A stretch of 64,000 nt of DNA from Candidatus Cloacimonadota bacterium (GCA_037441405.1 JBBISI010000004.1:25417-89416); one strand, 5' to 3'; positions 493-61,088 are shown, numbered from the stretch's first letter. The notes: generated by a model from the letters alone, not told the origin. A program made the numbers and translations.

Positions 493-723
493 GTTATACT
501 CCTCTTGAGATTGCTGGGGTTGTTATACGAAAGTTCGTATTTCCACTTCTATCATTGGCTGTAATTGTCAAGAGCAAATACTCTTCCAATATCAGGCCTT
601 GTTTGGCGAAATTCATCAGGGGATGAGGAGTCAGAGCTATCACTGCCATTGATCTCATACTTGGATTGTCCATAACCCGTATTCAACCGGTAGGGTCGTT
701 GTCCTTCTTCACCTTCTTCCTTG

Positions 724-795
724 CTCCATAACCTTAGTATAACCTTACGACCGTAAGGTTATACTAAGGTTATACTAAGGTTATCAAGTAAGGAG
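724..795 (+). repeat. Foldback element copy 1 (2+3 array of TAAGGTTAT 9-mers, centre GACC)
   Basis: Sequence is CTCCATAACCTTAGTATAACCTTAC-GACC-GTAAGGTTATACTAAGGTTATACTAAGGTTATCAAGTAAGGAG. Arm 728-749 pairs perfectly with 752-773. It lies between the divergent GNAT and rpsO genes. Confidence 0.9.
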
Positions 796-1050
796 AAGAC
801 AAGATGGTATATATTAACCATCAGTCATGATGTAATATGATCAGGATAACCTAAGCAAAGTATTCAATAAACAAGTTACATGCAACTGTCTAACAGAATA
901 TTAGAGCGATGTGCCGCCAGTATTCCCACTAATACCCCAGATCCATGTACTGTGTATTGAGATTGGCAGGGGATAAAAAGCGAGATTGATACGACAAAAT
1001 GCTTTACAAAATTGGAGTAAGCAGAAACATGGCGCCAAAACAAGAAGGAG

Positions 1051-6627: not shown

Positions 6628-7197
6628 TTGGCAACGCATAGCCCTGTTCTGGTTGATGAGTTATTTGGTGAGATCAAGCCTGCCGAAGCGGGAAAGCACT
6701 GGTATGTGATCCACACCAAGCCGCGCTGTGAGAAAAAACTGGCAGAATTTGCCCGTCGCAATGAGGTCCACTACTACTTGCCTCAGATCGAAAGTGAGCG
6801 TCGTTACCGGCGCCGCAAGGTGAACTTTACTAGACCGATGTTTCCCGGCTATCTATTCAGCGAGATGTCACTCCCGGAAAAGCAACAACTGATCATATCG
6901 GGATATTTGGTAAGGATTATCAACGTCCCCAATGAAGATGAATTACTGGCGGAATTAGGCAATTTGTATCACTGCCGGAAAGGCAAAGCCAAGGTATTAC
7001 CCACGGTTTGGCTATCCAAGGGCTTGCAGATAGAAATCATTGATGGACCGCTCAAAGGGGTTACCGGTATCGTGGAAAGCCATGAGAAACTTGAGGAAGT
7101 CCGCCTGCAAGTGGAGATGTTACGTCAGGCAGTAATGGTAAAAATTCCAGCCACTGATGTCAGGGTCATCGGTGACTACGAGATCGCGGACGATTAA
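6628..7197 (+). CDS. NusG-family transcription antitermination paralog (UpxY/RfaH-like)
   Basis: NGN-like WYVIHTKPRCEKKLAEF...FPGYLF and KOW-like GLQIEIIDGPLKGVTGIVES. TTG start follows GGGAGG. It is embedded in the nucleotide-sugar gene cluster. Confidence 0.75.
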   Translation: MATHSPVLVDELFGEIKPAEAGKHWYVIHTKPRCEKKLAEFARRNEVHYYLPQIESERRYRRRKVNFTRPMFPGYLFSEMSLPEKQQLIISGYLVRIINVPNEDELLAELGNLYHCRKGKAKVLPTVWLSKGLQIEIIDGPLKGVTGIVESHEKLEEVRLQVEMLRQAVMVKIPATDVRVIGDYEIADD

Positions 7198-7227: not shown

Positions 7228-8169
7228 TTGAGGATACTGGTCACAGGAGGCGCTGGATTCATCGGCTCACATATTGTGGATGCCTATGTTGATACGGGGC
7301 ATGAGGTCACAGTAATCGACGATCTCAGTAGTGGCAAGTATGAAAACGTTAATCCACGTGCTCTGTTTCATCAGATGGACATTTCATCTCAGGAATTGTC
7401 TGTTTTACTTAGTGAAATCAGACCCGATCTGATCAATCATCATGCTGCCCAGATCAGTGTCCCCCGTTCCATTACCGATCCTTTTACCGATGTGCAGACC
7501 AACATCAATGGCTTGGTTAATCTCTGCGAAGCTGCCGTGAAAAGTGGCGTGGCCAAGATCATTTTTGCTTCATCCGGTGGTGCTATCTACGGAGAACCGG
7601 AGGAGTACCCCGCCACGGAGAATTGTCCAACGAGACCGCTATCGATCTATGCCATCAACAAGAAAGCATCAGAGGACTACCTGTATTTTTACAGCTATTT
7701 TTATGGTCTCGATTATACTGTTCTGCGCTATGCCAATGTCTTTGGTCCACGACAGGATCCGGCTGGTGAGGCTGGTGTGGTATCCATCTTTATTGAGCAT
7801 TTGCTTAAAGGGGAGATCCCCAATCTGAACGTCTATCCTGATGATCCTGACGGTATGATAAGAGATTATATCTTTGTGCGGGACGTGGTAACAGCCAATC
7901 TGAAGGCGCTATCCCGAGGAAGCAGGGATGTCTTTAATATCGGGACAGGGATCCCTGTTAAGACACGTGAATTGTATAATGCGATAAAACAAGAGATAGG
8001 ATCTTCGATCGAGCCAACCTCGATGCCTGCCCGTCCAGGTGACATTAAGCGGAGTTTATTAAACATTGACAAGGCACGGCAAGTTCTGGATTGGTCCCAT
8101 CAATATAGTCTCTATCGGGGGATCGGTGAGACCGTTGAGTTTTTCAAGAATATAGGCACTGGAGTATAA
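7228..8169 (+). CDS. NAD-dependent epimerase/dehydratase (UDP-glucose 4-epimerase-like extended SDR)
   Basis: MRILVTGGAGFIGSH Rossmann motif and a YxxxK site (YAINKKASE). 313 aa. Confidence 0.85.
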   Translation: MRILVTGGAGFIGSHIVDAYVDTGHEVTVIDDLSSGKYENVNPRALFHQMDISSQELSVLLSEIRPDLINHHAAQISVPRSITDPFTDVQTNINGLVNLCEAAVKSGVAKIIFASSGGAIYGEPEEYPATENCPTRPLSIYAINKKASEDYLYFYSYFYGLDYTVLRYANVFGPRQDPAGEAGVVSIFIEHLLKGEIPNLNVYPDDPDGMIRDYIFVRDVVTANLKALSRGSRDVFNIGTGIPVKTRELYNAIKQEIGSSIEPTSMPARPGDIKRSLLNIDKARQVLDWSHQYSLYRGIGETVEFFKNIGTGV

Positions 8170-9492
8170 ATGGAATTAGCAGTGATAGGAACCGGCTACG
8201 TTGGTCTCGTTTCGGGAACCTGCTTTGCCGAAATGGGCAATAATGTTATATGCGTGGATGCCGATCAAACTAAGATCGAGATGCTTAGACAGGGAGTGAT
8301 TCCGATCTATGAGCCCGGTTTGGAAGAGATGGTTCGCCGCAATGCCAGAGAAGGGCGCCTGACCTTTAGCACTGATATCAAAGAGGCGGTTGATAAAGCA
8401 CTGGTGCTGTTCATTGCAGTGGGTACTCCACCCGATGAGGATGGTTCGGCTGATCTACAGTATGTGTTGGCAGTTGCCAGAGATATAGCAAGATGTATGA
8501 CCGATTATCGAATAATCGTCGATAAATCCACCGTTCCGGTTGGCACTGCTGACAAGGTAAGGGACGAGGTAAGATCAATCCTGAAAGAGCGCGGCGTCAA
8601 CTATAAACTTGATATTGTGTCCAATCCGGAATTCCTCAAGGAAGGCGCTGCCATTGAGGACTTTATGAAGCCCGACCGAGTTGTGGTCGGGGTCGATAAC
8701 GTCCGGGTGGCAGAGATCATGAAACTCTTGTATTCTCCATTTAACCGCAATAACGACAGGGTGATAATCATGTCCATCCGCTCGGCGGAGATGACAAAGT
8801 ATGCCGCCAACGCCATGCTGGCGACCAAGATATCCTTTATGAACGAGATCGCCAGGTTATGCGAAAAACTTGGCGCAGACATATCAGAGGTTAGGCATGG
8901 TATCGGCTCAGACACCCGTATCGGGTATAAATTCATCCATCCCGGTGTGGGTTATGGGGGAAGTTGCTTTCCCAAAGACGTTCAAGCGCTGATACAGATG
9001 GCACAGAAAGCCGGCATGGAGCCATTGGTGATGAAGGCAGTGGAAGCAGTCAATGCCGAGCAGAAAACCGTTCTGGCACAAAAGGTCAAGGCACATTTTG
9101 GCGAGGATCTCAAGGGCAAGACTTTTGCCGTTTGGGGTCTGTCTTTCAAGCCGCAGACCGATGACATGCGTGAAGCCCCGTCGATCGTTATCATCAATGA
9201 ACTTATCAATGCCGGAGCGCATATCGTGGCTTATGATCCAGTTGCCATGCACGAGGCGAGACGCCATTTTGGAGCCAATCCTGCCATCTCTTATACCGAC
9301 AACGAATATGATGCTCTGCGTGATGCCGATGCGATGCTCCTGATCACCGAGTGGCACCAATTCCGTTATCCTGATTTCAAGCGGATCAAGTTACTTTTGC
9401 GTCAACCAGTGATCTTTGACGGACGCAACCAGTATGATCCGCACCAGGTGCGCGAATTGGGCTTCACCTATTTTGCCATAGGCAGGCCATAA
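8170..9492 (+). CDS. ugd: UDP-glucose 6-dehydrogenase
   Basis: [24 protein letters not shown], catalytic [11 protein letters not shown], 440 aa. Confidence 0.9.
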
Positions 9493-9518
9493 AAGAAGGA
9501 TAAAAGGCAATTATCGGT

Positions 9519-10457
9519 ATGTTTACCAAGATCTCGAAACAACCGGTGATGAACCGAGTCCTGTATACTCTGATCCCGTCTCTACTTTTTAGTATCCACT
9601 GCTTTGGCTGGCGGGTCTTGCTTATCATAACCGTGAGCAATCTCAGCGCATACCTCACCGAACTTCTGTACCTCCACTCCAAGAAGAGTGCCAAAGTATC
9701 AATGGCAGTATTCGTTACCGGTACTTTGTTGGCATTTACATTACCGCCTACCATTCCGCTATGGATTGCCGCTTTGGGATCTGTGATCGCCATCCTATTT
9801 GGCAAGATGGTCTTTGGCGGTTTTGGGATGAATGTATTCAATCCAGCCATTCTCGGCAGGACTTTTATCTACGTATGTTTTCCCCGGCAGATGACGATCA
9901 CTTGGGCACAGCCATTCACCGGATTTCCAGGTGGATTTGCTCAGTTTACCGCTGGAAGGGACATGATCACAAGTGCCACCATCCTCGGTTATTTTCGCAC
10001 CACGGGTGAGTATCTTTATGGCTTCAAGGACGCTTTTCTGGGATCGATCCCCGGCTCATTGGGTGAGACCTCAGCACTCCTCATCATCCTGGCAGGGATC
10101 TATCTGATCATCACGAAGACAGCTAAATGGCAGCCGATGCTCGGCACCCTAATCAGTATCTTGTTATTCTCCTGGATTTTTGCACCAGACACCAATCCTC
10201 TTTACTTTCTGGTCAGCGGCGGTGCGCTATTTGGCATTGTTTTTATGACCACCGATCCCGTCACTCAGGCAAAGGGCAGATATGCAATCTGGGTTTATGG
10301 ATTGCTGATCGGCTTCTTGACCGTCCTGATCCGACAGAAGTCGCTATTTTACGAGGGTTTTATGTTTGCCCTGCTGATCACCAATGCGTTGATACCGATC
10401 ATAGAATACGGCATTGATAAATACCTGAAACCCCGGAAAGCGGAGAAGAAAGCATGA
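9519..10457 (+). CDS. RnfD/NqrB family ion-translocating oxidoreductase subunit (RnfD-sized, 312 aa)
   Basis: FGGFGMNVFNPAILGRTF, TTDPVT, and a candidate FMN-attachment site DMITSAT. Length and N-terminus resemble RnfD more than the ~410-aa NqrB. Confidence 0.85.
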   Translation: MFTKISKQPVMNRVLYTLIPSLLFSIHCFGWRVLLIITVSNLSAYLTELLYLHSKKSAKVSMAVFVTGTLLAFTLPPTIPLWIAALGSVIAILFGKMVFGGFGMNVFNPAILGRTFIYVCFPRQMTITWAQPFTGFPGGFAQFTAGRDMITSATILGYFRTTGEYLYGFKDAFLGSIPGSLGETSALLIILAGIYLIITKTAKWQPMLGTLISILLFSWIFAPDTNPLYFLVSGGALFGIVFMTTDPVTQAKGRYAIWVYGLLIGFLTVLIRQKSLFYEGFMFALLITNALIPIIEYGIDKYLKPRKAEKKA

Positions 10458-11167
10458 GCGATATTCAGACCGCAGGGCCACTCTCCGCTAGTGATCAATC
10501 TCCTCCGCTAAACGAGCGTTCTTGGTATCCGATCGCATTTATGCTGGTTGTCAGTATCGTCTTCATCGGTTTATTGGCTTTGTTTTACCGAAGCAATGAA
10601 CCAAGGATCAGGCAAGCACAGCAGCGGGCATTCCGCAGCCAGATCCTGTCTCTTTTTACCGAAGAGATCGGATCGGTGACCGGTTTGACAAGGGCAGAAC
10701 TGCTATCGGCAGAAGAACTTGACCAGAACTACCTTAGATTCATCAAGCCCGTCCTTATGCCAGATGGTTCCTCCGCCTATTACCGATCGCTTGCTGACGG
10801 GACTTTGCTCGGTTATTGTTTCGATATCACGGGGAAGGGACTCTGGGGGACCATGAGAGCGCTGGTAGCGATGAAGCCGGACTTGATGACGGTGATCAAT
10901 CTCAGCGTATATGACCAGATGGAGACGCCGGGGCTGGGTGCCCGCATCACGGAAGACAAATTCCGGGATCAATTTGCCGGCAAGGTCTTGTATGAGGATG
11001 ATAAACCGGTATCTCTGACTTTGGTGCCCGAGGATGCTGTTGATCCCTATCTCACAGAGATCAGACAGGTTACCGGAGCCACCATTACCAGCCGCAGCGT
11101 TCTGGATATGTTATACAAAGAATTGACCTACGTCCGCAATCGCATCCGGCAGGAAGAGCAGAAATGA
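10454..11167 (+). CDS. RnfG/NqrC family FMN-binding subunit
   Basis: N-terminal TM helix, ETPGLGARI, and flavinylation-type motif VTGATITS. Overlaps its neighbours by 4 nt, indicating translational coupling. Confidence 0.85.
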   Translation: MSDIQTAGPLSASDQSPPLNERSWYPIAFMLVVSIVFIGLLALFYRSNEPRIRQAQQRAFRSQILSLFTEEIGSVTGLTRAELLSAEELDQNYLRFIKPVLMPDGSSAYYRSLADGTLLGYCFDITGKGLWGTMRALVAMKPDLMTVINLSVYDQMETPGLGARITEDKFRDQFAGKVLYEDDKPVSLTLVPEDAVDPYLTEIRQVTGATITSRSVLDMLYKELTYVRNRIRQEEQK

Positions 11168-11760
11168 CGACCAAACAGATATTCATAGATAGCGCATTCA
11201 GGGAAAACTCAATCTGGAAACAGATCCTGGGGATCTGTTCCACGCTGGCGGTGACCAATCTGATGTTGAATAGTTTGATCATGGGCATCGGCGTGATCTT
11301 TTCACTCGCTTTAACCAATCTGACCATCTCCTTGCTGCGCAATTACATCCCGCGCAGCGTGAGGATGATGACGCAGACCTTGATCATCGCTTTTTACGTG
11401 ATCATCGTGGATATCTATCTCAAGGCATACCTTCCGGATATCAGCATGCAATTGGGACCTTACGTCGGTCTGATCATCACCAATTGCATCCTGATGGGGA
11501 GAGCAGAGGCATTTGCCGTCAAGAACAAGCCCTGGGATTCAGTTATCGACGGGATCGGCGCTGGATTTGGCTATACGCTTGTCCTGCTTGCCATCGCCCT
11601 GATCCGTGAGATAATGGGCTTTGGCTCCATCTTTGGTTTCACCGTTCTGGGCGACAGGTGGACCAAGTGGTCGATCATGGTGATGGCGCCCAGTGCTTTC
11701 TTAATTCTCGCCGTCTTTATCTGGATCATCAACAACAACTTTTACAAAGGCAAGGCATAG
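11164..11760 (+). CDS. RnfE/NqrD family subunit
   Basis: 198-aa polytopic membrane protein with N-terminus ...NSIWKQILGICSTLAVTN, typical of RnfE/NqrD. Confidence 0.85.
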   Translation: MTTKQIFIDSAFRENSIWKQILGICSTLAVTNLMLNSLIMGIGVIFSLALTNLTISLLRNYIPRSVRMMTQTLIIAFYVIIVDIYLKAYLPDISMQLGPYVGLIITNCILMGRAEAFAVKNKPWDSVIDGIGAGFGYTLVLLAIALIREIMGFGSIFGFTVLGDRWTKWSIMVMAPSAFLILAVFIWIINNNFYKGKA

Positions 11761-11762
11761 TT

Positions 11763-12350
11763 ATGGATATCAATGCCTTTGTTCTCTTTTGGTCTGCGAT
11801 CTTTACGAGCAATATCCTGTTGACCAATTTCCTGGGAATGTGCTCTTATCTATCCATTTCCAGAGAAGTGGAGTCCTCCTTCGGTTTGGGGATGGCGGTG
11901 TTTTTTGTCCTGACCATCACCGCCGGCTTGAATTGGGTGATCTACTACCATATCCTGGTCCCTTTTGATCTGATTTATCTGCAATTCATCATCTTCATCA
12001 TCGTGATCGCTGCCTTCGTTCAATTGCTGGAAATGCTGATCGAACGCTTCACGCCGGCTCTTTACTACACTCTCGGGATCTTCCTGCCGCTGATCACGGT
12101 CAATTGTGCCATTCTCGGCGTCAGTTTGTTCATGGTCATCCGCAAATACTCATTCATCCAGTCCGTTGCTTATGGTGCAGGCAGTGGCATCGGCTGGCTA
12201 TTGGCGATCCTGATGTTAGCCGGTATCCGCACTCGTCTCAAGGACAAAATGATCCCTCAAGGTCTGCAGGGGGCAGGGATCAGTTTGATAATCACCGGCA
12301 TCATGGCACTGGCGTTTATCGGCTTCTCGGGCATCGTGATCATCCAGTAA
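11763..12350 (+). CDS. RnfA/NqrE family subunit
   Basis: The ORF-track entry 11658..12350 overlaps the previous gene. The ATG at 11763 gives MDINAFVLFWSAIFTSNILLTNFLGMCSYL, the standard RnfA/NqrE N-terminus. Confidence 0.85.
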   Translation: MDINAFVLFWSAIFTSNILLTNFLGMCSYLSISREVESSFGLGMAVFFVLTITAGLNWVIYYHILVPFDLIYLQFIIFIIVIAAFVQLLEMLIERFTPALYYTLGIFLPLITVNCAILGVSLFMVIRKYSFIQSVAYGAGSGIGWLLAILMLAGIRTRLKDKMIPQGLQGAGISLIITGIMALAFIGFSGIVIIQ

Positions 12351-12355
12351 CAGAT

Positions 12356-13459
12356 ATGTTTCTCATCATTATCAGAGATATTGGCATCACTACCCTGATC
12401 AGTGGCGGTTTGGCTTTGATTCTGGTAATCGCGCAAAGGTATCTCAATGACTATGGTCTGTGTAAGATTAATATCAATGGTAAACGCGAGATTACTCTCA
12501 AAGGCGGCTCATCGCTACTCAATTCTCTCTCCGAAAACCAGATCTTCATTCCCTCCGCATGTGGCGGCAGGGGCAGTTGTGGCACCTGCAAGTGTCGAGT
12601 ATTGGAAGGGGGAGGAACGCTTCTGCCCACGGAAAGACCGCTACTCAGCGCCAAAGAGATGGCTGATGATCTCCGTCTTGCCTGCCAGATAAAGGTTAAA
12701 ACCGACGTCCGCATCCATATCCCCGAATCCATCTTCAGTATCCGCCGCTATCAAGGTAAGGTCACCAAGATCGTGGATTATACCTACGATATCAAAGGCG
12801 TTACAATAGAACTGACGGACCCTCCGACCATTGATTTTAAAGCCGGACAATATGTCCAACTGGAGACCCCCACCTATGGCAAAGTTCGCCAGAAGGTCGT
12901 GCGTGCATATTCGATTTCATCCGATCCCGGGGATAAAAAACATATCCAATTGATCATTCGCTACGTTCCGGAGGGCATCTGCACCACCTGGATCCACCAA
13001 TTTCTCGAAGAAGGCGATCAGATCAGTTTTACCGGCGCCTATGGCGATTTCTTTATCCGCGATACCGATGTAGATATGGTCTTTGTCGCAGGTGGATCCG
13101 GCAAAGCGCCGATTAAATCCATGCTGGAATATCTAAGCCGGGTCGGCACCACCCGCCGGATGCGTTACCTATTCGGAGCGCGCACCTGCAAAGATCTCTA
13201 TCTCACAGATGAGATTCATGCCTTTGAGCAGGTCTTTGACGATTTCGAGTATATTCCCGTTCTTTCCAAACCTTGTCCGGAAGAAAATTGGCAGGGCAGG
13301 ATCGGCTACGTTATGCCTGTCTTACCAGAAGTGATCAGAGATCCAACCATGACGGAGGCATATCTCTGCGGCAGCCCCGCAATGATCGACGCAGTGCAAA
13401 AAGCCCTGATCGAACTCGGCGTCCCCGAGGATAAGATCTATTACGATAGTTTTGGATAA
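12356..13459 (+). CDS. nqrF: NqrF-like subunit (TM anchor + 2Fe-2S ferredoxin + FAD/NAD(P)-binding reductase)
   Basis: In-frame ATG at 12356 (MFLIIIRDIG...). Cluster motif CGGRGSCGTCKC...LACQ, FAD motif RAYSIS, NAD motif AGGSGKAP. The longer ORF-track start at 12104 overlaps nqrE. Confidence 0.85.
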   Translation: MFLIIIRDIGITTLISGGLALILVIAQRYLNDYGLCKININGKREITLKGGSSLLNSLSENQIFIPSACGGRGSCGTCKCRVLEGGGTLLPTERPLLSAKEMADDLRLACQIKVKTDVRIHIPESIFSIRRYQGKVTKIVDYTYDIKGVTIELTDPPTIDFKAGQYVQLETPTYGKVRQKVVRAYSISSDPGDKKHIQLIIRYVPEGICTTWIHQFLEEGDQISFTGAYGDFFIRDTDVDMVFVAGGSGKAPIKSMLEYLSRVGTTRRMRYLFGARTCKDLYLTDEIHAFEQVFDDFEYIPVLSKPCPEENWQGRIGYVMPVLPEVIRDPTMTEAYLCGSPAMIDAVQKALIELGVPEDKIYYDSFG

Positions 13460-13463
13460 TAGG

Positions 13464-13937
13464 ATGAAACAAACCCCACAGGAATTACTCATTGCCCAAC
13501 GGATGCAGCCCGGAGTGATCACGCTCAGCGGTTTTCTGGGTGATGATCCGCGTCCCTTGAACCAGATCATCTCGGATGATGCCATGACTCTACAACGATT
13601 GGGCGTAACTGGCATGGAAATTGCGGAGCGGATGGAACACCTGACCGAAAAAAGTAAACAGGTTTACGAGGGCAGTATCGTCGTCGATGAGATGTATGAG
13701 ATCGAGACCGAGATTACCCGTGGCAAATTGCCCTGTCCTTATCCCCATCGAGGGTTGCAACGCAAAACAATCACCTCCTGCACCCATCTTTCAAGCGGGA
13801 TCAAGGTGCGCTGGACTGCACTCAATATTCACATGATAAAGGAACATGGTTTCTTTGAAGGCAGGGGTTCGCCGTTCCGGCTTGAGCCTGAGATCCTGGT
13901 AAAGGTTCTTTTCCCGGATGAAGCCCTCGGCTCGTAA
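13464..13937 (+). CDS. Hypothetical protein, apparently co-transcribed with nqrF
   Basis: Open from 13452 (TTG), overlapping the nqrF stop; the ATG at 13464 gives MKQTPQELL.... I recognise no family. Contains CPYPH and CTH motifs and HGFFEGRGSPFRLEP. Confidence 0.6.
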   Translation: MKQTPQELLIAQRMQPGVITLSGFLGDDPRPLNQIISDDAMTLQRLGVTGMEIAERMEHLTEKSKQVYEGSIVVDEMYEIETEITRGKLPCPYPHRGLQRKTITSCTHLSSGIKVRWTALNIHMIKEHGFFEGRGSPFRLEPEILVKVLFPDEALGS

Positions 13938-13947
13938 TTTACTCAAC

Positions 13948-14214
13948 CTAATCATCATCAAATTCATCGTCCGCGTTGCCCGAATCAACGTTTCCAATCA
14001 CCCGCAGGACTGCCGTCTCTTCTTCTGAGTGGAATACGTTCCGGTAAATGAATTGGTGGATGAAAGCGAGGCCGGTCTGAATGCCGTTTCCTATGGGCAG
14101 GAACAGATGAACTTTCCGAGCGGGACCGTTGAATATGTTGGGGGTGTTATACTTAAGGTTATAAACTAACTGAGCCCTTTGCAGAGTTAACCATGGGGAG
14201 AGATGTATCTGAGA
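13948..14214 (-). pseudogene. Possible 3' remnant of an unidentified gene (no start codon)
   Basis: 88 codons are open on the minus strand with no ATG/GTG/TTG start. It ends ...GPARKVHLFLPIGNGIQTGLAFIHQFIYRNVFHSEEETAVLRVIGNVDSGNADDEFDDD then TAG at 13950-13948. The protein-like part stops where the 9-mer half-site at 14141-14165 begins. Confidence 0.3.
14141..14165 (+). repeat. Solo half-site of the foldback family
   Basis: GGGGTGTTATACTTAAGGTTATAAAC compares with the standard distal arm AAGGTTATACTAAGGTTATCAAG. An exact TAAGGTTAT sits at 14154-14162. The junction GGTTATAAACTAACT recurs at 34294-34308. Confidence 0.6.
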
Positions 14215-14228
14215 TTATGTTTAGAAAT

Positions 14229-14258
14229 TTGTCAATTTAGCCACAAAACAGGTAAAAT
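14229..14258 (+). promoter_or_regulatory. Candidate sigma70-type promoter upstream of RNA unit A
   Basis: TTGTCA (14229-14234), 18 nt, TAAAAT (14253-14258). The -10 part is deleted in the paralogous unit B. Confidence 0.3.
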
Positions 14259-14377
14259 CCTCATGAATAGCGTGAAATTTCCATTTAGCGTGCCTTTATC
14301 AAGCCATATTGAGGGAAAATCCCAGAATCTGGGCACACCTCTCTCTTTTTGCCCGACAAAATCCATTGTTATTGCGA

Positions 14378-14638
14378 CGTCGTCAGATGTTAGGGGGTTA
14401 CTTGAATCACCGTTTAAAACGCCACCATGGATCAACCCGCAAGGGTAACCGGACTTTTTGAGGACATTAGTCCGAGAGAAACCCCCTCCCGCTGGAGAAA
14501 GATCCTTCTTTTAATACCCTGGAATATTTCTCTCTCGTTCGATCTGAAGTTTTCACAATGTCCCAAAATACGGAAGGGTTATATATGCCCTCACGACCTG
14601 GAACGGTGGTTGAAACCATCGCCCAACATCTGATGACG
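14378..14638 (+). ncRNA. Candidate structured RNA, unit A (unknown class; paralog of 34339-34598)
   Basis: About 75 percent identical to unit B. A closing helix forms between CGTCGTCAGATGTTAGG (5') and CCCAACATCTGATGACG (3'). Also a CCC-GCAA-GGG hairpin at 14436-14445 and a CGTT-TAA-AACG hairpin at 14411-14421. See findings for the covariation. Confidence 0.55.
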
Positions 14639-14751
14639 CGTGATGTCGCGGGAAGGTGAATGATACTGCTTACCGATAATCTCAATCCCTGTTGATCCCA
14701 ATATGTCCAGTGGTCTCGAGCAGTAAGTTTCCTGCCAAGTATCGAATCCTC

Positions 14752-14826
14752 CCTGCTTGATAACCTTAGTATAACCTTAGTATAACCTTACAGCCGTAAG
14801 GTTATACTAAGGTTATGAAGTGAGGA
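14752..14826 (-). repeat. Foldback element copy 2 (inverted orientation, 3+2 as read on plus; centre AGCC)
   Basis: Sequence is CCTGCTTGATAACCTTAGTATAACCTTAGTATAACCTTAC-AGCC-GTAAGGTTATACTAAGGTTATGAAGTGAGG, the reverse complement of the standard arrangement. Confidence 0.9.
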
Positions 14827-14943
14827 ACAACATGGATAAATACATAACCGGATTGTTTATATGCAAGTTACAGACCGGTGGAGAATGATCTGGTTTTCAG
14901 ATCGCTATCGTCGCGGCTTTCTTTGGCGATGAATTCGTTATTA

Positions 14944-16023
14944 CTATGGACAATCGAGGGCAGAAGCATTGATCCGAATCCAGCCATTTGTGACCATGCC
15001 AAAAGCGCTGCCGGGAGCGGTTATGATGCCGCTCTGGGCAAGGCGGGAGGCATACAGGATATCATCTTCACCGATGTTTACCATTACATAAGGGCCGGCA
15101 TTGGGAGTGTGGACAAAGAGATTGGGTATTTTGTCACCAATGTATTTTATAGCCAATTTGTGGCTTAAGCAAAGTCGCTGTCTGATGGTCTCCACCAGAG
15201 TCATACCCTCCGGACTGAGTGCGAAGATCGCCAGCATCTGGGAGAGCCAATTGGAGCAGGTGGAGATATATTGCCGGGTCTTGATCACACTACCGGAGAA
15301 GGAGGGTGGAGAGATGATCCAACCGATGCGCCATCCACTCATGCAATGAGATTTGGAGACACCTCCGACGACGATTAAACGGTCGTATCTACCGGCGAAT
15401 GAGGCGGGTCTCCACTCAAAATACAATTCACGGTAGATCTCATCCACGATCAGGACGATACTATATCTTTCACATAAATCAATCAACCGATCGATCTCAT
15501 CATCATGGAAGTATCTGCCATGAGGATTGGCGGGGTGGCTGAAAAGTAAAATTTTGACGCTAGTGGACAGTAATTTATCCCAGCGTTCCCAGTCGATGGA
15601 TATGAGATCTGGTTCATAGGGGAGACGAACAATACGGGCATTGACCATGGCAGCGATAGCGGGATAGGCGGGATAATCGGGATCGGGGATGGCGATGAGG
15701 TCATGATCATTGACCAGAGCGGTCAGAGTGATATAGAGCGCTTCCTCGGCGCCATTGGTGATACAGACCTGCGAGGTATCGATCCTGGAGTCATAATATG
15801 CCGCCACCTGATCTCTCAAAGTAGGCAGACCCGCATTCGGTGTATAGCGTGGAGTTTCCGTTATAAGCAGTTCTCTGGCGTATTCGGCAAGGGCTTTGGG
15901 CAGGGGATAGGTCAATTCGCCGATCGCCAGATTGAGCGCATCAGCCGGAGCTGCTGCCACGATCCGCCGCAAAAGCGATAACTCTATATTCTTAATGCGA
16001 CTGGCTTCAGTCAGTGAGTTCAC
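14944..16023 (-). CDS. Class I/II pyridoxal-phosphate aminotransferase (possibly succinyldiaminopimelate aminotransferase, given the adjacent dapD)
   Basis: LNLAIGELTYPLP, PNAGLP, a fold-type I Lys region (GGVSKSHCMSGWRIGW), and C-terminal ITAPGSAFG. The ORF track opens at 16143 but would overlap dapD by 137 nt. The in-frame GTG at 16023 (VNSLTEASRIKNIE...) is my preferred start; the start remains uncertain. Confidence 0.8.
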   Translation of the reverse strand: MNSLTEASRIKNIELSLLRRIVAAAPADALNLAIGELTYPLPKALAEYARELLITETPRYTPNAGLPTLRDQVAAYYDSRIDTSQVCITNGAEEALYITLTALVNDHDLIAIPDPDYPAYPAIAAMVNARIVRLPYEPDLISIDWERWDKLLSTSVKILLFSHPANPHGRYFHDDEIDRLIDLCERYSIVLIVDEIYRELYFEWRPASFAGRYDRLIVVGGVSKSHCMSGWRIGWIISPPSFSGSVIKTRQYISTCSNWLSQMLAIFALSPEGMTLVETIRQRLCLSHKLAIKYIGDKIPNLFVHTPNAGPYVMVNIGEDDILYASRLAQSGIITAPGSAFGMVTNGWIRINASALDCP

Positions 16024-16831
16024 GGATGTCGAGTTCAAGCCGGACAGAATTGTCGGTTTTATCGTCACGGTATTTGATGATGATCGGGCAATATACCTGA
16101 AAATCGGGATTGGAGCGCAAGCGGCGGCTGCCAGCCACAACAACGGCTCCGGCGGGAATGATCATTGGACCATCCTCACCCGAAGGCAGGAAATCGCCCT
16201 TTACTGCATCAAAGATAGGAGTGGCTGAGGTGACCACGACGCCGGAAGCAATAACCGCTCTGCTTCTGATCAGGATACCTTCATAGATACCGGTGTTACC
16301 ACCGATAAAGACATCATCCTCGACAATGACCGGGCGGGAGCCGATGGGTTCGATCACGCCACCGATCATTGCTCCAGCGGAGAGGTGGACATTCTTGCCG
16401 ATCTGGGCGCAACTACCGACCAGGGCATGGGAATCGATCAGGGAACCAGTGTCCACATAGGCGCCGATGTTGATAAAGGCTGGTGGCATGATCGTCACGG
16501 TTGGAGCGATATAACAGCCATTACGCGCAGAAGTGCCTCCGGGGACGATACGTACCTGGTCTTGGAGTTGAAAATGTCTTTCGGGGAGGGTGTCCTTGTC
16601 AAAGAAGGGCTTATCGTCACTCCAGTCGTATTGGGTGAGTTTGCCCATCCGGAAGGCACAGAGAATACCCATCTTGACCCAGGAATTGACGATCCAGTTA
16701 TCGCCTTGACGTTCACAGGCACGGACGGAACCGGAATTGAGTGCTTCCAGAAAAGTAGCGATCAATTGACGATCGGCTTGCTGATAATAAGCGGGTTTTA
16801 CCTGATATAGTGATTCTATCTGCTGTTTCAT
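16007..16831 (-). CDS. dapD: 2,3,4,5-tetrahydropyridine-2,6-dicarboxylate N-succinyltransferase
   Basis: 274 aa. N-terminal helical domain followed by left-handed beta-helix hexapeptide repeats (GAYVDTGSLIDSHALVGSCAQIGKNVHLSAGAMIGGV), typical of DapD. Confidence 0.85.
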   Translation of the reverse strand: MKQQIESLYQVKPAYYQQADRQLIATFLEALNSGSVRACERQGDNWIVNSWVKMGILCAFRMGKLTQYDWSDDKPFFDKDTLPERHFQLQDQVRIVPGGTSARNGCYIAPTVTIMPPAFINIGAYVDTGSLIDSHALVGSCAQIGKNVHLSAGAMIGGVIEPIGSRPVIVEDDVFIGGNTGIYEGILIRSRAVIASGVVVTSATPIFDAVKGDFLPSGEDGPMIIPAGAVVVAGSRRLRSNPDFQVYCPIIIKYRDDKTDNSVRLELDIRELTD

Positions 16832-25254: not shown

Positions 25255-25389
25255 ATACTGGAATCACCAATTTCTCCTTACTCCATAACCTTAGTATAAC
25301 CTTACGGTCGTAAGGTTATACTAAGGTTATACTAAGGTTATCAAGTAAGGAGGATAGTAGTTAACTACTCTGAATTATGCAAGGGTCTT
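25255..25389 (+). repeat. Foldback element copy 3, short form (core 25281-25352, centre GGTC)
   Basis: It has the left end ATACTGGAATCACCAATTTC and the right end CTCTGAATTATGCAAGGGTCTT seen in the long forms at 38.3 and 51.3 kb, but lacks their ~190-nt internal segment. Confidence 0.85.
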
Positions 25390-33358: not shown

Positions 33359-33445
33359 CAGAGCCCCTTAAATGTTCGGTGTGTTGATAATTTTCAATAC
33401 CTGCTTTTTCGTCAAGTGAATTCTGTGGCGGCACAATAAATTTGA

Positions 33446-33610
33446 TTGCAACTTGACAACGAATACTGCAAATTGTGCAGCGAAAGCTGCAATCTGTCGC
33501 ATCGTATGACATCCTTACTCATCCTTACTAAGACCCTTTTGAGTGGTTTTTGACAGGATATCTGCAAATTCGATCACCGAAAATTGCAAATTGTGACAGG
33601 CTTTCTGCAT
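33446..33610. promoter_or_regulatory. Array of TGCAA(A/T)(T/C)TG-type motifs upstream of the glycogen operon
   Basis: Sites: TTGCAACTTGACAACG, the 15-bp palindrome CTGCAAATTGTGCAG (33466-33480), CTGCAATCTGTCGCA, CTGCAAATTCGATCA and TTGCAAATTGTGACA (33584-33598). The function is inferred only. Confidence 0.3.
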
Positions 33611-33925
33611 ATCCAGTTATATCGAAATATGGTAAAGAGGAATAAGACTTATATTTCCTGATACCAATCTTGAATACTGGCGGGAAGCATACCCATGTTC
33701 AATACCATCACTTTATTACCGTTTGATTATTTAATAGTATTTCAACGCAGATAGTTAGTTGGTCTTGACCATATCTCAGTGAATGACTATACTTGTTTTG
33801 TAATCAAATAATTGAACTTCTCGAGTATAAGCTTTTTCCTTTCTTCAATAAAGCGTTCATAATTATCGAGTCTCCATAAAGTGCGATCCTTAGGTATCAG
33901 GTGGAGATCTAGATAATCATCGCCT

Positions 33926-34156
33926 TTGTCTTCGAACCAATTCACTGGAGGAGAATCCCATGACCTTGCCTGGTATGAACAGAAAGCGGTGGCAGTATTG
34001 CTTGCACTGCTGTCGTTGGGATTCAAGGATATCATCGTCGGTCCGACCTTGCCCGGATTCCTCTCGACAAATGTGGCAAAAGTCATCACGGATGCCTTCG
34101 GACTACGCAAGATCACCACACCTGAAGAGGATATCAGGTTCATGATGGGCTCATAG
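33926..34156 (+). pseudogene. hcp: 3' remnant of hybrid-cluster protein (hydroxylamine reductase) gene
   Basis: Translation ...[65 protein letters not shown] plus stop matches my recollection of the conserved Hcp C-terminus. The other ~480 codons of a normal hcp are absent. An in-frame stop lies at 33914. Confidence 0.7.
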
Positions 34157-34165
34157 TTCATCATT

Positions 34166-34217
34166 AGTATAACCTTACGACTGTAAGGTTATACTAAGGT
34201 TATCAAGCAAGGGGGAC
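34166..34217 (+). repeat. Foldback element copy 4 (truncated left arm, 1+2 9-mers, centre GACT)
   Basis: Sequence is TTAGTATAACCTTAC-GACT-GTAAGGTTATACTAAGGTTATCAAGCAAGGGGG. It starts 9 nt after the hcp remnant stop. Confidence 0.85.
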
Positions 34218-34338
34218 AGTGTCGTCCAGTGGTCAAGCCAACTCTCTGACTTATTAAATAAGACCCCTGAATTATTTGGGGCATTGTTCTTTCGGTTATA
34301 AACTAACTAATTGTCAGACAAGATCCTGTATCATTGCA

Positions 34339-34598
34339 GCGTTATCAGATGTTGGGTGGTGACTTCAGTCACCGCGTCGGAACGACGCTAAAGATCTACC
34401 CGCAAGGGTATCCGGACTTTTTGAGGACTATAGTCCGAGACTAATCCCCTCTCGCTGGACAGGGATCCTTCTTTCAATGCGTGGTATATGTCCTTCGTTC
34501 GGACTGAAGTCCGCACTATGTCTAATAACCCAATAAGGTTGTATGTATTCTCACGATCCGGAACGGTGGTAAAACCACCGCCTAACATCTGATGGCGC
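34339..34598 (+). ncRNA. Candidate structured RNA, unit B (unknown class; paralog of 14378-14638)
   Basis: A 19-23 bp closing helix forms between GCGTTATCAGATGTTGGGTGG and CCGCCTAACATCTGATGGCGC, with 4 G-U pairs in plus sense. Hairpins: GGTGAC-TTCA-GTCACC; GCGTCG-GAA-CGACGC (34374-34388); CCC-GCAA-GGG (34399-34408); CGGAC-TGAA-GTCCG; GGTGG-TAAAA-CCACC. Confidence 0.6.
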
Positions 34599-34646
34599 TG
34601 GAAAACTAATTGGATTCATCTGATGCCGCTGGAAAACTTATTATAG
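34586..34646 (+). repeat. Tandem duplication of the 3' closing-strand segment of unit B
   Basis: CATCTGATGGCGCTGGAAAACTAATTGGATT (34586-34616) is followed by CATCTGATGCCGCTGGAAAACTTATTATAG (34617-34646). Confidence 0.85.
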
Positions 34647-34770
34647 TGCTTTCTTTAGCTCTCAATCTCTGATGAGCCCGTTGCATGCAATGGTCCCCGG
34701 TATCAAATACCGGTCGTTCGCCCATATTCCCCAATTGATCAGCGATCGGTATCGGCATCTGAACCACCTA

Positions 34771-37884: not shown

Positions 37885-38259
37885 CTACTTCAGCCGGTAG
37901 AGTTTGATTCTGTGGCAGAGAGTGTTTTCTGATACATTGAGAAGAATGGTTGCGTCTTTCTGTTTACCATTGCATTTGATCAAGGCATCCCGGATGATAT
38001 CCTTCTCTTGTTCTGCCAATGTGGTGGACAGGTTGTAATCCTTGGGCAGTAGTTTAGCGGAATTTTGTGCCATGGCAATGGATTTGTTGTCCCACGTTCT
38101 GAGTTCGGAGGTAATGATCAAACTCTCGATCATGTTTTTGAGTTCTCTGACATTTCCGGCAAACTCATATTGTTCCACGGCGTGATAGAACTTGTCCTCG
38201 ATGACAGGTTTTGGCTTTTTGGTCTCGGTACAGAACATCTCGACAAAATGGACGATCAA
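37885..38259 (-). pseudogene. 3' fragment of a sigma54-dependent activator (end of AAA+ domain plus Fis-type HTH only)
   Basis: The 124-aa ORF holds only ...EQYEFAGNVRELKNMIESL... and the C-terminal HTH (KQKDATILLNVSENTLCHRIKLY). Walker A/B, GAFTGA and any sensor domain are missing. Upstream sequence is replaced by repeat element copy 5, starting ~38268. Confidence 0.7.
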
Positions 38260-38267
38260 TAGTTAAG

Positions 38268-38583
38268 AGCGTTGCACATACTGGAACAGCCAAATTTCGA
38301 GAATATGAAAAAACAGTATCGTCTCTCCTTCCGGCGCAGTCAGTTACAATTAGAGGATTATGCCTGTCAGATAGTCTGAATACTCGTTGAGTCCAACGCT
38401 CTGAGTTATCTAACGGTCTCAAGAAGGTTTAGATTCAAGCGTAATAGCGCTTTCTTCTGAGTTCTCCCTGCTTAATAACCTTAGTATAACCTTACGGTCG
38501 TAAGGTTATACTAAGGTTATACTAAGGTTATCAAGCAAGGAGGATAATTTTAAGTTAACTCTCTGAATTATTCACCGGTCTTT
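38268..38583 (+). repeat. Foldback element copy 5, long form (core 38464-38544, centre GGTC)
   Basis: About 315 nt, collinear with 51301-51616 at roughly 75-80 percent identity. Layout: left end ATACTGGAAC, ~190-nt internal segment, foldback core, right end CTCTGAATTATTCACCGGTCTTT. Confidence 0.85.
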
Positions 38584-47051: not shown

Positions 47052-50000
47052 GTGGTACGAATCAGATTAAATACCGGTATTCAGTGGGTGATACTGATCA
47101 TGTCGATCGTGTTAATAATGCCCGGGCAATTGCATTCAAAAGACCTGTTTATCCGCGATTTGATCCCCGTCGATATCCATACGACCACCTATCGCTTGAG
47201 TGCATCTCCAATTATGAAATACTCGGAGACCATCTATGCCGATAGTATCCTCCTCTATCCTCCGCATGATTATCAAATCAGTTATCTGGAAGGCATCATC
47301 ACGGTCAGGGATGGACTGAGGTCGGTATATCTCATTGCGGAATATACTCTTATCCCGGATCACCTGTTATCTGATCATTATCGATATCAGTCCTTTGCTT
47401 GGGATCAATTGCCCACGAATTTGCCCCGGATGGCTCCATGGTTCATGTTTCCTGAAGACGGAAAACTCACTCTAAGCGGAATTAAAACCTTTGCACTTAC
47501 TCTATCCGATGATCAGGCAGTTGATATCAAACAATCCCTGTTACTTAATCTTAGTGGAGAACTATCGCCCAATGTAATCGTGGAAGCACGGCTATCCGAC
47601 AACCAATCAAAACTATCTCCGGAGGGAGACACCCGAGAATTGAGCAGTTTGGATGAGGTATATTTCAAAGTATTCGGTCGTGGATATGAACTTGCTCTTG
47701 GCGATTTGGAATGGGGCTTCAGGGATACGCGTTTTATAAACTATCATACCAAGTTCGAAGGGATAAACGTCTGGTATAACGACTTACATGCCGCCCAATT
47801 TGCATACTCGGCAAACAACGGCAAAACGAGTTTACAGAAACTTAACATTGTCGACGGAAAACAAGGACCATATTATCTCCGGGCTACAGGATTCCAGCAA
47901 AACTTTATCGTGATCGCCGGATCAGAAAGGATTCATCTTGATGGCAATCTGCTGGAAAGAGGAACCGACTATAGCATCGATTATGCCGAGGGCTCTATCA
48001 TGTTCAGGCGATTGGTCTCATCGACCAATTCGGTCTATGTCCGTTTCCAATACTCCGATGAGTATTACAAACAGACGATGTTTCTCAATTCCAGTGAGAT
48101 TCGGTTAGCGGAAAAACTTCGTCTTCGGCATAGCATGATCGTCCAGAAAGACGACAAAAACTCTCCTCTGCAGTATAACTTCTCCACTGCAGATATCGAT
48201 TCACTGCGTACTGCCGGGGACAATGTCGTATGGGGACAGGGTGTGTTCGAGGTTGAACCGGGAACGGGTATGTATCGCAGGTTGTTCAATGATGATGGAA
48301 TTGCATACTATGATTATGCACCCGGCGACAGCACCGCCATTTATCTGATCTATTTCAGTTACGTGGGACAGGGCTTGGGCGACTATGAAGAGTTTTACTC
48401 AGGCAGATTTCGATATGTGGGCATGGGTCTGGGACGTTGGTTGCCCCAAAAATGCTTGATCCCTCCGGTCTTGCGATCAAATAACGGTCTCCGGCTCTCC
48501 TATCAAAGCGAATATTGGGAAACCGCAGTGGAAGCGCTTTATTCCACCAATGACAAAAGCACGTTATCCAAACTCGATGATGGTGACAACGACAGCATCA
48601 TGTTCTACGCTTCCGGTCGCTGGAAACCTGACCATGATGTTATTCGACCGATCGTCGATCTTGATTTCGAGAGCCGAGCCGCCCATAGTTTTCTCTTCGC
48701 TGACGATACAAACAGAGAACTGGACTATGACCTATACCAGCTTGAACCGACCGACTCGCTGGCCTTCTATCAGTTTCGGTCCTCGGTTGCTTTAGGCACT
48801 TGGTTCAACTGGACCCCTAAATTTATGGTCCGCTACCGTAAGGTGAGAGGATATATGGAATCCCAGACCTATCGCTTTCTCTCGCGATCGACCCAGGGCA
48901 AGCATTATCCCGCCTTTGATCTGAGGAATACCATATCTTTGCAGGATTACTCAGATGGATCAATATCGAGGATCCAGTTTCATCAGGCAAACAGTTCCTG
49001 GAACTACCGGGCTCTATTACTCCGGCTCAGTTACCTGTATGACAGCATCAAATATCACAACCGGAACAGCAACTCGGGATCGAGATTTATCCGCTTCAGC
49101 CCGATGATCGGATGGAGCGCGCGAGGTGCATGGCATTCCCAGTTTACCTATACCCATGACCAAAGCGATAAACTTGCCGCCGATTGGCAGACCAACAGAA
49201 CCAGTTATACGTTCTCTTTGAATCAGTTGATCTCGACCCAATTGCACCAATTGAACCTTGACGCCTCCCGCAAGATAATCGATACGGTGGACTTGTCCGA
49301 ACCCGCTGCAGATGCCGATCGATCAGCAGGCAGAAATTCCTTCGATCTGATACGCTTCCGTTCCTACCATAACCTTCTGAAAAATGCACTGACCCTACTT
49401 GCTAATTATCAATTGAATAATAGCGAGTTCTTCCCCAGAATCAGAGAACTTGAATATATCGGCAGTGGTATGGGATTGTATGACAGCACGGGCGTTTACA
49501 ATCACAATGGTGATTATGATTATACATACATAACTTCGGAGACAGGTATCTTGAGCACCGAGATTCATACACAGATAAATCTCTATCTAAAACCATCGTT
49601 CATAAGCAGATCAGCTTTCTTACGCCGGATCAATTCTGATGTAATGATCAGTGCTACTGAGCAGAATTCAAAACGCAATGACTGGAAGATTCTACTCTAT
49701 TTGCCGCAAAGCGTGTTCAACGACTCGACAACCATTTATGGCAGACAGGCATTCCAGCAAACCCTGTGGCTTGATCTGATCACCGGAAAAGTCACTGCTA
49801 ATGCGCAGTTTGGTTTTACCCGTTCACTGGATCAACGCTATCAAAGTTATTCCCGTTCCACAAGTAGGCAGACCTCATTGGAAATGGAATTACGCCAATT
49901 TAGAAACCACAGTTACCGCGTCCGTTTTGACCACGATCTGGATACAGACACCCGCTACAATTCAGAGATAGACCGCTCCGACTTTTCGGTGCAGACCCAA

Positions 50001-50366
50001 AGGAACTTTCCTCCCTTGACGATCGTCCAGATCGATCTCGAGTTGGGCGTCGAATCCGGCAGAAACACCGTTAATGATGACACCTATGACCTCCACATCA
50101 TCGGTCTTAGACCCTCGATCCGATCCACTATCATGCAAAAATACCGCATCCATTCGTCACTATATCTTTCAAGAGTCGAGCGCAGAGGTTCATCTTTCCT
50201 GCAGTTCATGCCGGATAAACGACAGGGTTATCATGCCAATTGGAATCTCAGCACTCATTACCGCCTCAACAACTTCTCTTCCTTATCGGCAGAATACAGC
50301 GGCAATAGTTTTCCAAAAGCCCAAACCCAGCACCAGTTAAAACTCGAATTCAAGGCGGAGATCTGA
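47052..50366 (+). CDS. Large (1104 aa) hypothetical protein, probably an outer-membrane beta-barrel
   Basis: GTG start 3 nt after the previous stop and a signal-like N-terminus. The C-terminal two-thirds is rich in alternating Y/S/N/R beta-strand-like segments. No family recognised. Confidence 0.6.
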   Translation: MVRIRLNTGIQWVILIMSIVLIMPGQLHSKDLFIRDLIPVDIHTTTYRLSASPIMKYSETIYADSILLYPPHDYQISYLEGIITVRDGLRSVYLIAEYTLIPDHLLSDHYRYQSFAWDQLPTNLPRMAPWFMFPEDGKLTLSGIKTFALTLSDDQAVDIKQSLLLNLSGELSPNVIVEARLSDNQSKLSPEGDTRELSSLDEVYFKVFGRGYELALGDLEWGFRDTRFINYHTKFEGINVWYNDLHAAQFAYSANNGKTSLQKLNIVDGKQGPYYLRATGFQQNFIVIAGSERIHLDGNLLERGTDYSIDYAEGSIMFRRLVSSTNSVYVRFQYSDEYYKQTMFLNSSEIRLAEKLRLRHSMIVQKDDKNSPLQYNFSTADIDSLRTAGDNVVWGQGVFEVEPGTGMYRRLFNDDGIAYYDYAPGDSTAIYLIYFSYVGQGLGDYEEFYSGRFRYVGMGLGRWLPQKCLIPPVLRSNNGLRLSYQSEYWETAVEALYSTNDKSTLSKLDDGDNDSIMFYASGRWKPDHDVIRPIVDLDFESRAAHSFLFADDTNRELDYDLYQLEPTDSLAFYQFRSSVALGTWFNWTPKFMVRYRKVRGYMESQTYRFLSRSTQGKHYPAFDLRNTISLQDYSDGSISRIQFHQANSSWNYRALLLRLSYLYDSIKYHNRNSNSGSRFIRFSPMIGWSARGAWHSQFTYTHDQSDKLAADWQTNRTSYTFSLNQLISTQLHQLNLDASRKIIDTVDLSEPAADADRSAGRNSFDLIRFRSYHNLLKNALTLLANYQLNNSEFFPRIRELEYIGSGMGLYDSTGVYNHNGDYDYTYITSETGILSTEIHTQINLYLKPSFISRSAFLRRINSDVMISATEQNSKRNDWKILLYLPQSVFNDSTTIYGRQAFQQTLWLDLITGKVTANAQFGFTRSLDQRYQSYSRSTSRQTSLEMELRQFRNHSYRVRFDHDLDTDTRYNSEIDRSDFSVQTQRNFPPLTIVQIDLELGVESGRNTVNDDTYDLHIIGLRPSIRSTIMQKYRIHSSLYLSRVERRGSSFLQFMPDKRQGYHANWNLSTHYRLNNFSSLSAEYSGNSFPKAQTQHQLKLEFKAEI

Positions 50367-51300: not shown

Positions 51301-51616
51301 GACGTTATGCATACTGGAATCACTATATTTCGAGACCGTGAAAAAACGATATTGACTCTCTTTCTAGCGCAACTCATAACTACTGAGGATTATGTCTGGT
51401 AGGTAATTTGGATACTCGTTGATTCAACCGCTCTGAGTTATTCAACGGTCTGAAGAAGGTTTAGATTCAAGCGGTATAGTGCTTTCTCCTGAGTTCTCCC
51501 TGCTTTATAACCTTAGTATAACCTTACGTTCGTAAGGTTATACTAAGGTTATACTAAGGTTATCAAGCAAGGAGGAATAATTTTAAATCAGGTCTCTGAA
51601 TTCTTCAACGGTCTTT
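51301..51616 (+). repeat. Foldback element copy 6, long form (core 51496-51576, centre GTTC)
   Basis: Collinear with 38268-38583, including ATACTGGAATCAC, the internal segment, the core, and the right end CTCTGAATTCTTCAACGGTCTTT. Confidence 0.85.
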
Positions 51617-61068: not shown

Positions 61069-61088
61069 TGTTTTGCCTACTCCTGCCT

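Follow-up and report, generated by a model that had tools for sequence, protein, structure and literature searches.

A probable MITE-like palindromic repeat and a radical-SAM pseudogene downstream of the nqr operon in a Candidatus Cloacimonadota genome

Introduction

Downstream of the nqr operon of a Candidatus Cloacimonadota bacterium lies a stretch of DNA (13948-14826) that a first-pass annotation, made from the sequence alone, described as a structured-RNA unit bracketed by inward-facing repeat arrays next to a start-less gene remnant, raising the question of whether this locus encodes an RNA, represents a mobile element, or preserves what is left of a gene. The locus, hereafter locus A, was analysed within a window of 64,000 nt (GCA_037441405.1, JBBISI010000004.1:25417-89416), and coordinates refer to this window unless a relative is named.

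Locus A is flanked by the nqr operon and a conserved 157-aa gene (13464-13937, plus strand) on one side and by a convergent aminotransferase gene (14944-16143, minus strand) on the other. A Pfam scan of ~40 window genes revealed housekeeping functions throughout and no transposase, and the RNA-gene search found no tRNA or tmRNA. The ORF at 47052-50366 (plus strand, 1104 aa) carried no Pfam domain at E <= 1e-5. A Logan contig (SRR11582151) was 100% identical to window positions 11237-14776 and breaks within the foldback repeat described below, and the closest named genome was an uncultured Candidatus Cloacimonadota MAG (CAYZZE01/GCA_964482845.1), referred to here as the sister MAG.

A radical-SAM pseudogene and its antisense frame

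The 157-aa gene and a radical-SAM gene sit downstream of nqrF at this locus, and in a relative of ~80% nucleotide identity (L037, L042/L043) the latter is an intact gene of 362 aa with the domains PF04055 and PF13353. The intact gene overlaps the 157-aa gene by 20 nt, and the ATG at 13918 in the window has the identical overlap. A tblastn search with the 362-aa protein of the relative placed residues 1-27 on 13918-13998 and, in the same plus-strand frame, residues 221-271 on 14005-14142, the latter at 41% identity (E = 2.6e-5 against the whole window). Furthermore, a profile of 60 family members matched QDCRLFF*VEYVPVNELVDE at model positions 225-244 with 14.5 bits, and an in-frame TGA was detected at 14026-14028, where the homologue has Trp. 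Based on the synteny, the tblastn pieces in one frame, the TGA and the HMM match, 13918-~14122 is a plus-strand radical-SAM pseudogene (MoaA/NifB/PqqE/SkfB-type, PF04055) that has undergone an internal deletion and lost its 3' end. It fuses approximately codons 1-29 in frame to approximately codons 221-260, is missing ~190 internal and ~90 C-terminal codons, and is cut off on its right side by the repeat unit.

The first-pass annotation had proposed that an 88-codon minus-strand gene was deprived here of its 5' part. The open frame itself was confirmed (13951-14214, minus strand, with the stop TAG at 13948-13950 and TAA at 14215-14217), and it holds no ATG, GTG or TTG until the GTG at 14001, but the notion of a shortened gene did not stand, as the frame lies antisense to the plus-strand radical-SAM remnant. 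No Pfam match was obtained for it, and a 1-nt indel relative to the sister MAG falls inside it, within 13948-14021. The minus-strand frame is an antisense by-product of the pseudogene and the adjoining left box, not a gene.

Architecture and copies of the repeat unit

The segment previously named RNA unit A (14378-14640) was revealed to be the 263-nt imperfect-palindrome core of a larger repeat. Homology between copies reaches well past the hairpin and takes in a left box, a leader, a 3' duplicate, a right box and an end like CAATGGTCT, so the repeat unit is ~450 nt long, in the order left box, leader, 263-nt imperfect palindrome, duplicated 3' strand and right box. At locus A, all on the plus strand, the left box occupies 14123-14171 and is followed by a copy-specific insertion of ~174 nt (14172-14345), which is missing from all the other copies with a left box, then by the conserved leader (TTGCCCGACAAAATCC..., 14346-14377), which aligns with TTGTCAGACAAGATCC of the other copies, and by the palindrome, a rod-like hairpin in folding and in the consensus structure (14378-14640). 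The right flank of the unit, delimited by alignment with the other copies (14641-14718), comprises what is left of a second, tandem copy of the 3' closing strand (14641-14665; 21 nt that copy B retains are deleted here), the right box ATCTCAATCCCTGTTGATCC (14679-14698) and an end, CAGTGGTCT, resembling the motif M introduced below (14708-14716). Copy A spans 598 nt including the insertion. Extended pairing between the leader and the right box received no consistent support.

A second copy, B, lies in the window at 34261-34708 with its palindrome at 34340-34602, and the two copies are ~72-80% identical. A scan of genome contigs with a pattern of 21 specified bases identified L002, L004 and L003, the last being cut by the contig end, so that the sister MAG holds three further copies plus one 5'-truncated orthologue of copy A (L036), and the complete copies are four in number (A, B, L002 and L004). 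The left box, homologous in A, B, L002, L003 and L004, follows the pattern AGACC.TTGAAT.AT.TGGGG...TATAAACTAACT, and the shared right box reads ATCTCAATCTCYGGTGAKCC. A tandem duplication of ~31 nt (CATCTGATGRCGCTGGAAAACTNATT), which takes in the hairpin's 3' foot together with the adjoining flank, was also observed in B (34586-34642), L004 (~1968-2030) and L036 (~6672-6735), whereas L002 has this sequence only once and A has lost part of the duplication.

The copies are all intergenic, and those of the sister MAG adjoin unrelated housekeeping loci (frr/pyrH, ruvB, panB and a SIMPL-family gene), near which no transposase, Cas or reverse transcriptase gene was found. No protein gene is common to the neighbourhoods of the copies, and no ORF is conserved within them, as the internal ORFs differ among copies and their stops are not kept. 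With a length below ~600 bp, no coding capacity and several copies at unrelated loci, the unit has the size and the dispersal of a MITE-like element.

The foldback repeat and motif M

The full foldback in inverted orientation that had been annotated at 14752-14826 was recovered at 14742-14833, inverted relative to most other window copies, and belongs to a family of ~90 nt with seven copies in the window (710-801, 14742-14833, 25267-25358, 34154-34216, 38457-38548, 51489-51580 and 61076-61167). Further copies were found in the relatives (L002, 4029-4112; L004, 2129-2216; L042, ~9105-9200), and none in viral contigs. The foldback arms are arrays of the 11-mer TAAGGTTATAC (2 + 3 units) with a 4-nt loop, closed by CCTTGCT.../...AGCAAGG, and the repeats are intergenic, most often just past a gene 3' end, and common to genomes down to ~80% identity. 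Since the flanks of two copies (38353-38551 and 51385-51583) share 89% identity across 199 nt, the foldback element is larger than the palindrome itself; in addition, an inverted repeat connects 14747-14885 with 51438-51576.

A 12-mer scan led to the foldback flanks. These carry motif M, CTCTGAATTATTCAACGGTCT, with the near-palindromic core TGAATTATTCA. Motif M flanks the foldbacks as a direct repeat (38406-38419/38568-38581 and 51438-51451/51601-51614), occurs also at 25375-25388, and lies in the foldback flank of locus A on the minus strand (14872-14885). In reverse complement, AGACCRTTGAAT, the motif marks the left end of all units, A and B among them (14123-14136, plus strand, within the left box of A), and the right ends of A, B and L002 carry the M-like CAATGGTCT. 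Allowing up to three mismatches, 16 matches to M were counted in the window against 5.7 expected; allowing up to two, ~39 kb of MAG loci gave five matches: the left ends of L002, L003 and L004 carry one each, another lies in a foldback flank in L002, and L036 has a lone M after the truncated unit, where the left end of a unit would begin. In L003 and L036 the right box runs straight into the reverse complement of M, so that units abut. The alignment of left with right ends was significant only in copy A, and no consistent direct repeat was read at the unit boundaries as a target-site duplication, the copies being few and their exact ends ill-defined.

A foldback is found within ~20-260 nt of each complete unit, on one or the other side, and, with a foldback in about one of seven intergenic regions, this proximity is by our rough estimate unlikely to be due to chance. 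The previously reported solo half-site does resemble a foldback arm (14146-14169, plus strand; 21 of 24 aligned positions match, a score reached in none of 500 shuffles), but it is the left box of the unit itself, position-homologous in all copies, and not a separate half-site. The left boxes of B, L002, L003 and L004 show no such resemblance, and relative to the consensus of the other copies that of A carries three substitutions in 16 nt, all towards the foldback (chance ~0.04 by our own estimate), which could be short-patch conversion or coincidence. The inward-facing arrays said to bracket the unit were likewise not a property of the family, as in each of the other complete copies a single side carries the foldback (the upstream side in B and L002, the downstream side in L004), and the terminal feature that is shared is motif M rather than foldback-like arrays.

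Gene remnants adjoin these repeats three times within 64 kb. Upstream of copy B, 33926-34156 (plus strand) encodes a 76-aa C-terminal remnant of a hybrid-cluster protein (matching the Prismane profile at 454-512 of its 513 positions, E = 2e-16), which has no N-terminal part, is preceded by ~540 nt of non-coding DNA (33359-33900) and ends exactly at the foldback upstream of the unit. At 37885-38259 (minus strand), ~200 nt from the foldback at 38457, the only match of a 124-aa ORF was to the AAA+ lid domain of sigma-54 activators, pointing to a gene fragment that has lost its 5' part; an exact database look-up of this protein gave no record.

Orthologous loci and the decay of copy A

In the sister MAG, locus L036 is 93% identical to window positions 7465-14021 and then jumps to the 3' half of unit A, with L036 6555-6684 aligning to 14507-14638 and the deletion junction lying at a TCTT-rich microhomology. 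The retention of this 3' half implies that the unit was at locus A in the common ancestor and that the MAG lost the 5' half; A and L036 also share the derived states CTGATGAC and ATATAT.CCCTCAC. This is the sole orthologous comparison between two close genomes, and the unit is in both. In L042 (~80% identity), by contrast, the radical-SAM gene is intact, a foldback follows 20 nt later and the unit is absent; the foldback and right flank of L042 had no similarity to locus A beyond the foldback itself. More distant relatives (61% amino-acid identity) have neither unit nor foldback at the locus. The search for an empty site in the nqr-to-aminotransferase region, as the first-pass annotation had advised, thus gave a divided answer, a unit-free locus in the ~80% relative and a truncated unit in the 93% sister MAG.

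Copy A is the most degraded copy: it has a unique 174-nt insertion, its 3' duplicate lacks 21 nt, and its hairpin is the weakest among the four complete copies. No second copy of the insertion was found in the window or in any of the loci compared. A and L036 are 74% identical, compared with 85.4% at fourfold-degenerate sites of the adjacent genes, and this divergence beyond fourfold-degenerate sites indicates that the locus sequence is not under purifying selection. We infer that copy A is no longer maintained. Also within this region is an A-specific inverted repeat of 33 nt (14110-14142 versus 14697-14729).

The additional DNA of copy A relative to copy B, previously estimated at ~130 nt (14266-14372), measures ~174 nt (14172-14345), and the two TAGCGTG repeats proposed as its borders (14268 and 14286) lie 18 nt apart inside it. 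The suggested promoter TTGTCA-N18-TAAAAT (14229-14258) is present and matches at 10 of 12 positions, but its reading as a promoter gained no support, given one promoter-like site found in the region against 1.7 expected by chance and its place inside the copy-specific insertion, DNA that the other copies do not have. The overall picture of a composite, decaying non-autonomous element was borne out in the sense that a mosaic of repeats beside a gene remnant was found, with an insertion, a deletion, the weakest hairpin and fast divergence, and the term non-autonomous element suits a unit that is non-coding, dispersed and lineage-restricted.

Hairpin structure: RNA or DNA palindrome

The segment 14370-14645 folds at -99.9 kcal/mol (z = -5.9), and a consensus structure for the four complete copies forms a single long rod by pairing of the 5' with the 3' half, with 93% of cells in pairs. 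This pairing is kept between copies that are only 67-75% identical; the stems are better conserved than the loops, and variation between copies is concentrated in the internal loops and the apical region. By these folding predictions the hairpin is real and would form a long hairpin if transcribed.

Whether selection acts on an RNA is a separate matter, and the earlier label of structured RNA fared accordingly: the folding and the paralogous copy B uphold the structure, but strand asymmetry is absent and covariation is weak. Minimum free energies on the plus and minus strands were -93 and -85 kcal/mol for A, -105 and -98 for B, -120 and -132 for L002 (in which the minus strand folds better) and -121 and -117 for L004, and the nhmmer model of the unit matches its own reverse strand. 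When each 5' arm was aligned to the reverse complement of its 3' arm, an approach that avoids the bias of structure prediction, the transition mismatches comprised 33 that are G·U-type on the plus strand (G·U) and 29 that are G·U-type on the minus strand (A·C). Because both strands fold about equally well and these mismatches are balanced, selection at the RNA level is unsupported. Compensatory pairs numbered five compared with 2.0 in shuffles, of which 8 of 500 reached five, a comparison based on only four sequences.

Four of five copies have a TATAAAC-type box upstream of the palindrome, always at the same distance, and no sigma-70-type promoter was called in B or L002. The search of the 64-kb window with Rfam 15 at the gathering score gave no match (6S, HEARO, OLE, ROOL, GOLLD and raiA included), and at E <= 10 copies A, B and L002 gave only chance matches to miRNAs and snoRNAs. 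Two candidate structures were dismissed by eye, namely a hammerhead (CUGAUGA...GAA after the hairpin), as B, L002 and L004 form neither stem II nor the GAAA core, and an integron attC site (GTTAGGC...GCCTAAC), for which the order of the core sites is wrong and the length of the structure excessive.

Short GC-rich hairpins with CTGAAG or CTTCAG loops (e.g., GGGCTGAAGCCC and CCGGCTGAAGCCGG) were also observed at L036 6880-6932, L042 ~10120-10204 and L002 4200-4320, clustering at contig ends and near unit L002, and may represent a further small repeat family. The unit arms hold GACTTCAGTC sub-palindromes like those of these hairpins.

Distribution

Among the genome contigs scanned by pattern, the unit was found only in the sister MAG. 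The pattern matches in metagenome (30) and viral (1) contigs were all attributable to chance by nhmmer, with no true homologue among them, two further scans of viral contigs returned nothing, and unit B had no blastn match among phages and plasmids. A HMMER search with the 66-aa antisense ORF of B against 1.84 billion protein representatives revealed one plausible relative, a spurious ORF that would derive from another copy of the unit (P0243), encoded on an NCBI contig of 29.7 kb, the other matches being repetitive junk proteins; a homologous-protein search with a concatenated six-frame query for spurious ORFs in the other copies returned nothing, and full-text searches of the literature gave nothing relevant. 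As exact-pattern scans would miss diverged relatives, the absence elsewhere is suggestive only. The repeat family, seen so far in two closely related Cloacimonadota genomes only, would on this suggestive evidence be restricted to a narrow lineage.

Origin of the locus and rival explanations

On balance, locus A is probably a copy, now in decay, of a MITE-like palindromic repeat that is non-coding and belongs to a narrow lineage. It lies on the remains of a radical-SAM gene and next to a REP-like foldback, and unit and foldback have an end motif in common. In the proposed sequence of events, the unit would have taken the place of the 3' third of the radical-SAM gene in the common ancestor with the sister MAG, and the gene would then have decayed to its ~200-nt remnant, the neighbouring foldback being presumably a separate, more abundant repeat. 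Unit and foldback may both be moved, or may formerly have been moved, by one DNA-processing enzyme encoded elsewhere, with mobilisation in the manner of non-autonomous MITE- or REP-like elements. Against the MITE-like reading, no autonomous partner was identified among ~40 window genes and the MAG neighbours, target-site duplications are not clear, and the terminal inverted repeat has no statistical support outside copy A. The conservation of the stems and the five compensatory pairs versus 2.0 would also fit a selected RNA structure. The main rival, which we regard as unlikely, is a family of paralogous genes that encode a rod-shaped small RNA of ~265-300 nt, either 6S/Ms1-like or a different regulator, each from its own promoter in the left box, A being a paralogue whose 5' region was remodelled, or a pseudogene. 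Such genes would account for the strong folding (z = -5.9), for pairing of 93% of cells down to 67% identity with more compensatory pairs than in all but 8 of 500 shuffles, for the conserved box upstream, whose -10-like TATAAAC keeps its spacing to the hairpin, and for the intergenic position of every copy. They would sit poorly, however, with the failure to match any Rfam family even at E <= 10, the absence of strand asymmetry in folding energy and in G·U versus A·C mismatches, the lack of a called sigma-70-type promoter in B and L002, a very narrow distribution with truncated and abutting copies, ends common to the foldback repeat, and orthologous copies that diverged faster than fourfold-degenerate sites. 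More doubtful again is the proposal that the ~265-nt rod constitutes a new small-RNA class with conserved stems and copy-specific loops, 6S/Ms1-like or the guide of an unlinked recombinase, which spread with the foldbacks via M.

The concentration of variation in internal loops and the apical region, with conserved stems, and the association of the units with the DNA motif M and with rearranged loci are features that would be shared by a guide RNA of the bridge RNA, seekRNA or omega-RNA kind, whose internal loops specify DNA targets for a recombinase or nuclease encoded elsewhere. This explanation is nevertheless very improbable, as no IS110, TnpB, IscB, reverse transcriptase or integrase gene was found beside the five copies or among ~40 window genes; guides of this kind are encoded next to their enzyme, whereas the neighbours of the units are nqr, aminotransferase, frr, ruvB and panB. 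Moreover, HEARO and all other Rfam models were silent, and the loop 12-mers were unmatched elsewhere in the window except for M and the foldback flanks. The most literal form of the first-pass annotation, in which one composite element bounded by inward-facing foldback arrays was inserted and removed the 5' part of a minus-strand gene, draws on the true resemblance of 14146-14169 to a foldback arm and on the full foldback ~590 nt away; it is scarcely credible given that the other copies are one-sided for the foldback with left boxes unlike it, and that the minus-strand frame is antisense to the plus-strand radical-SAM remnant.

These results correct the annotation of locus A in two respects: the minus-strand frame becomes the antisense of a plus-strand radical-SAM pseudogene, and the "structured RNA" becomes the palindromic core of an undescribed repeat family. 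The terminal motif common to the unit and to the far more abundant foldback points to one mobilising activity that may shape intergenic DNA and erode genes in this uncultured lineage. The results are of use for annotation and as a starting point for work on repeats in a little-known phylum; they offer no new mechanism.

Comparison with known systems

Several known systems share features with the unit. Like 6S and Ms1 RNAs, it is rod-shaped with large internal loops, has a length of 260-300 nt (as Ms1) and occurs as more than one paralogue per genome; unlike them, it has no Rfam match (the 6S model included), no strand bias, truncated and abutting copies, and ends common to a repeat element. 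In general terms and leaving homology aside, it resembles ERIC/IRU and YPAL in being non-coding and dispersed intergenically, with a long imperfect-palindrome core that would fold into a hairpin as RNA or DNA, indels among copies and no linked transposase. The core of ERIC/IRU is ~127 nt long, whereas that of the unit, at 263 nt, is twice as long; furthermore, the unit differs from both families, as compared by description, in the conservation of ~75-105 nt of non-palindromic flank on each side of the core, in a far lower copy number, in its host phylum, Cloacimonadota, and in having no sequence similarity to them.

The unit is similar to MITEs (Correia/NEMIS, Nezha and RUP) in that it is small, non-coding, multi-copy and lineage-restricted, with copy A tied to gene disruption and with ends that carry an inverted motif (the reverse complement of M on the left and an M-like sequence on the right), but differs from them in that terminal inverted repeats are supported only in A and that no target-site duplication or parent IS was found. 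Compared with REP, the unit is far larger, the foldback arms are direct 11-mer arrays instead of one short palindrome, and no RAYT gene was seen. Nevertheless, the foldback is comparable to REP/BIME/REPIN sequences as an intergenic palindrome of ~90 nt that lies mostly past gene 3' ends in seven copies per 64 kb, and it is with this REP-like foldback that the unit co-localises and shares the flank motif M.
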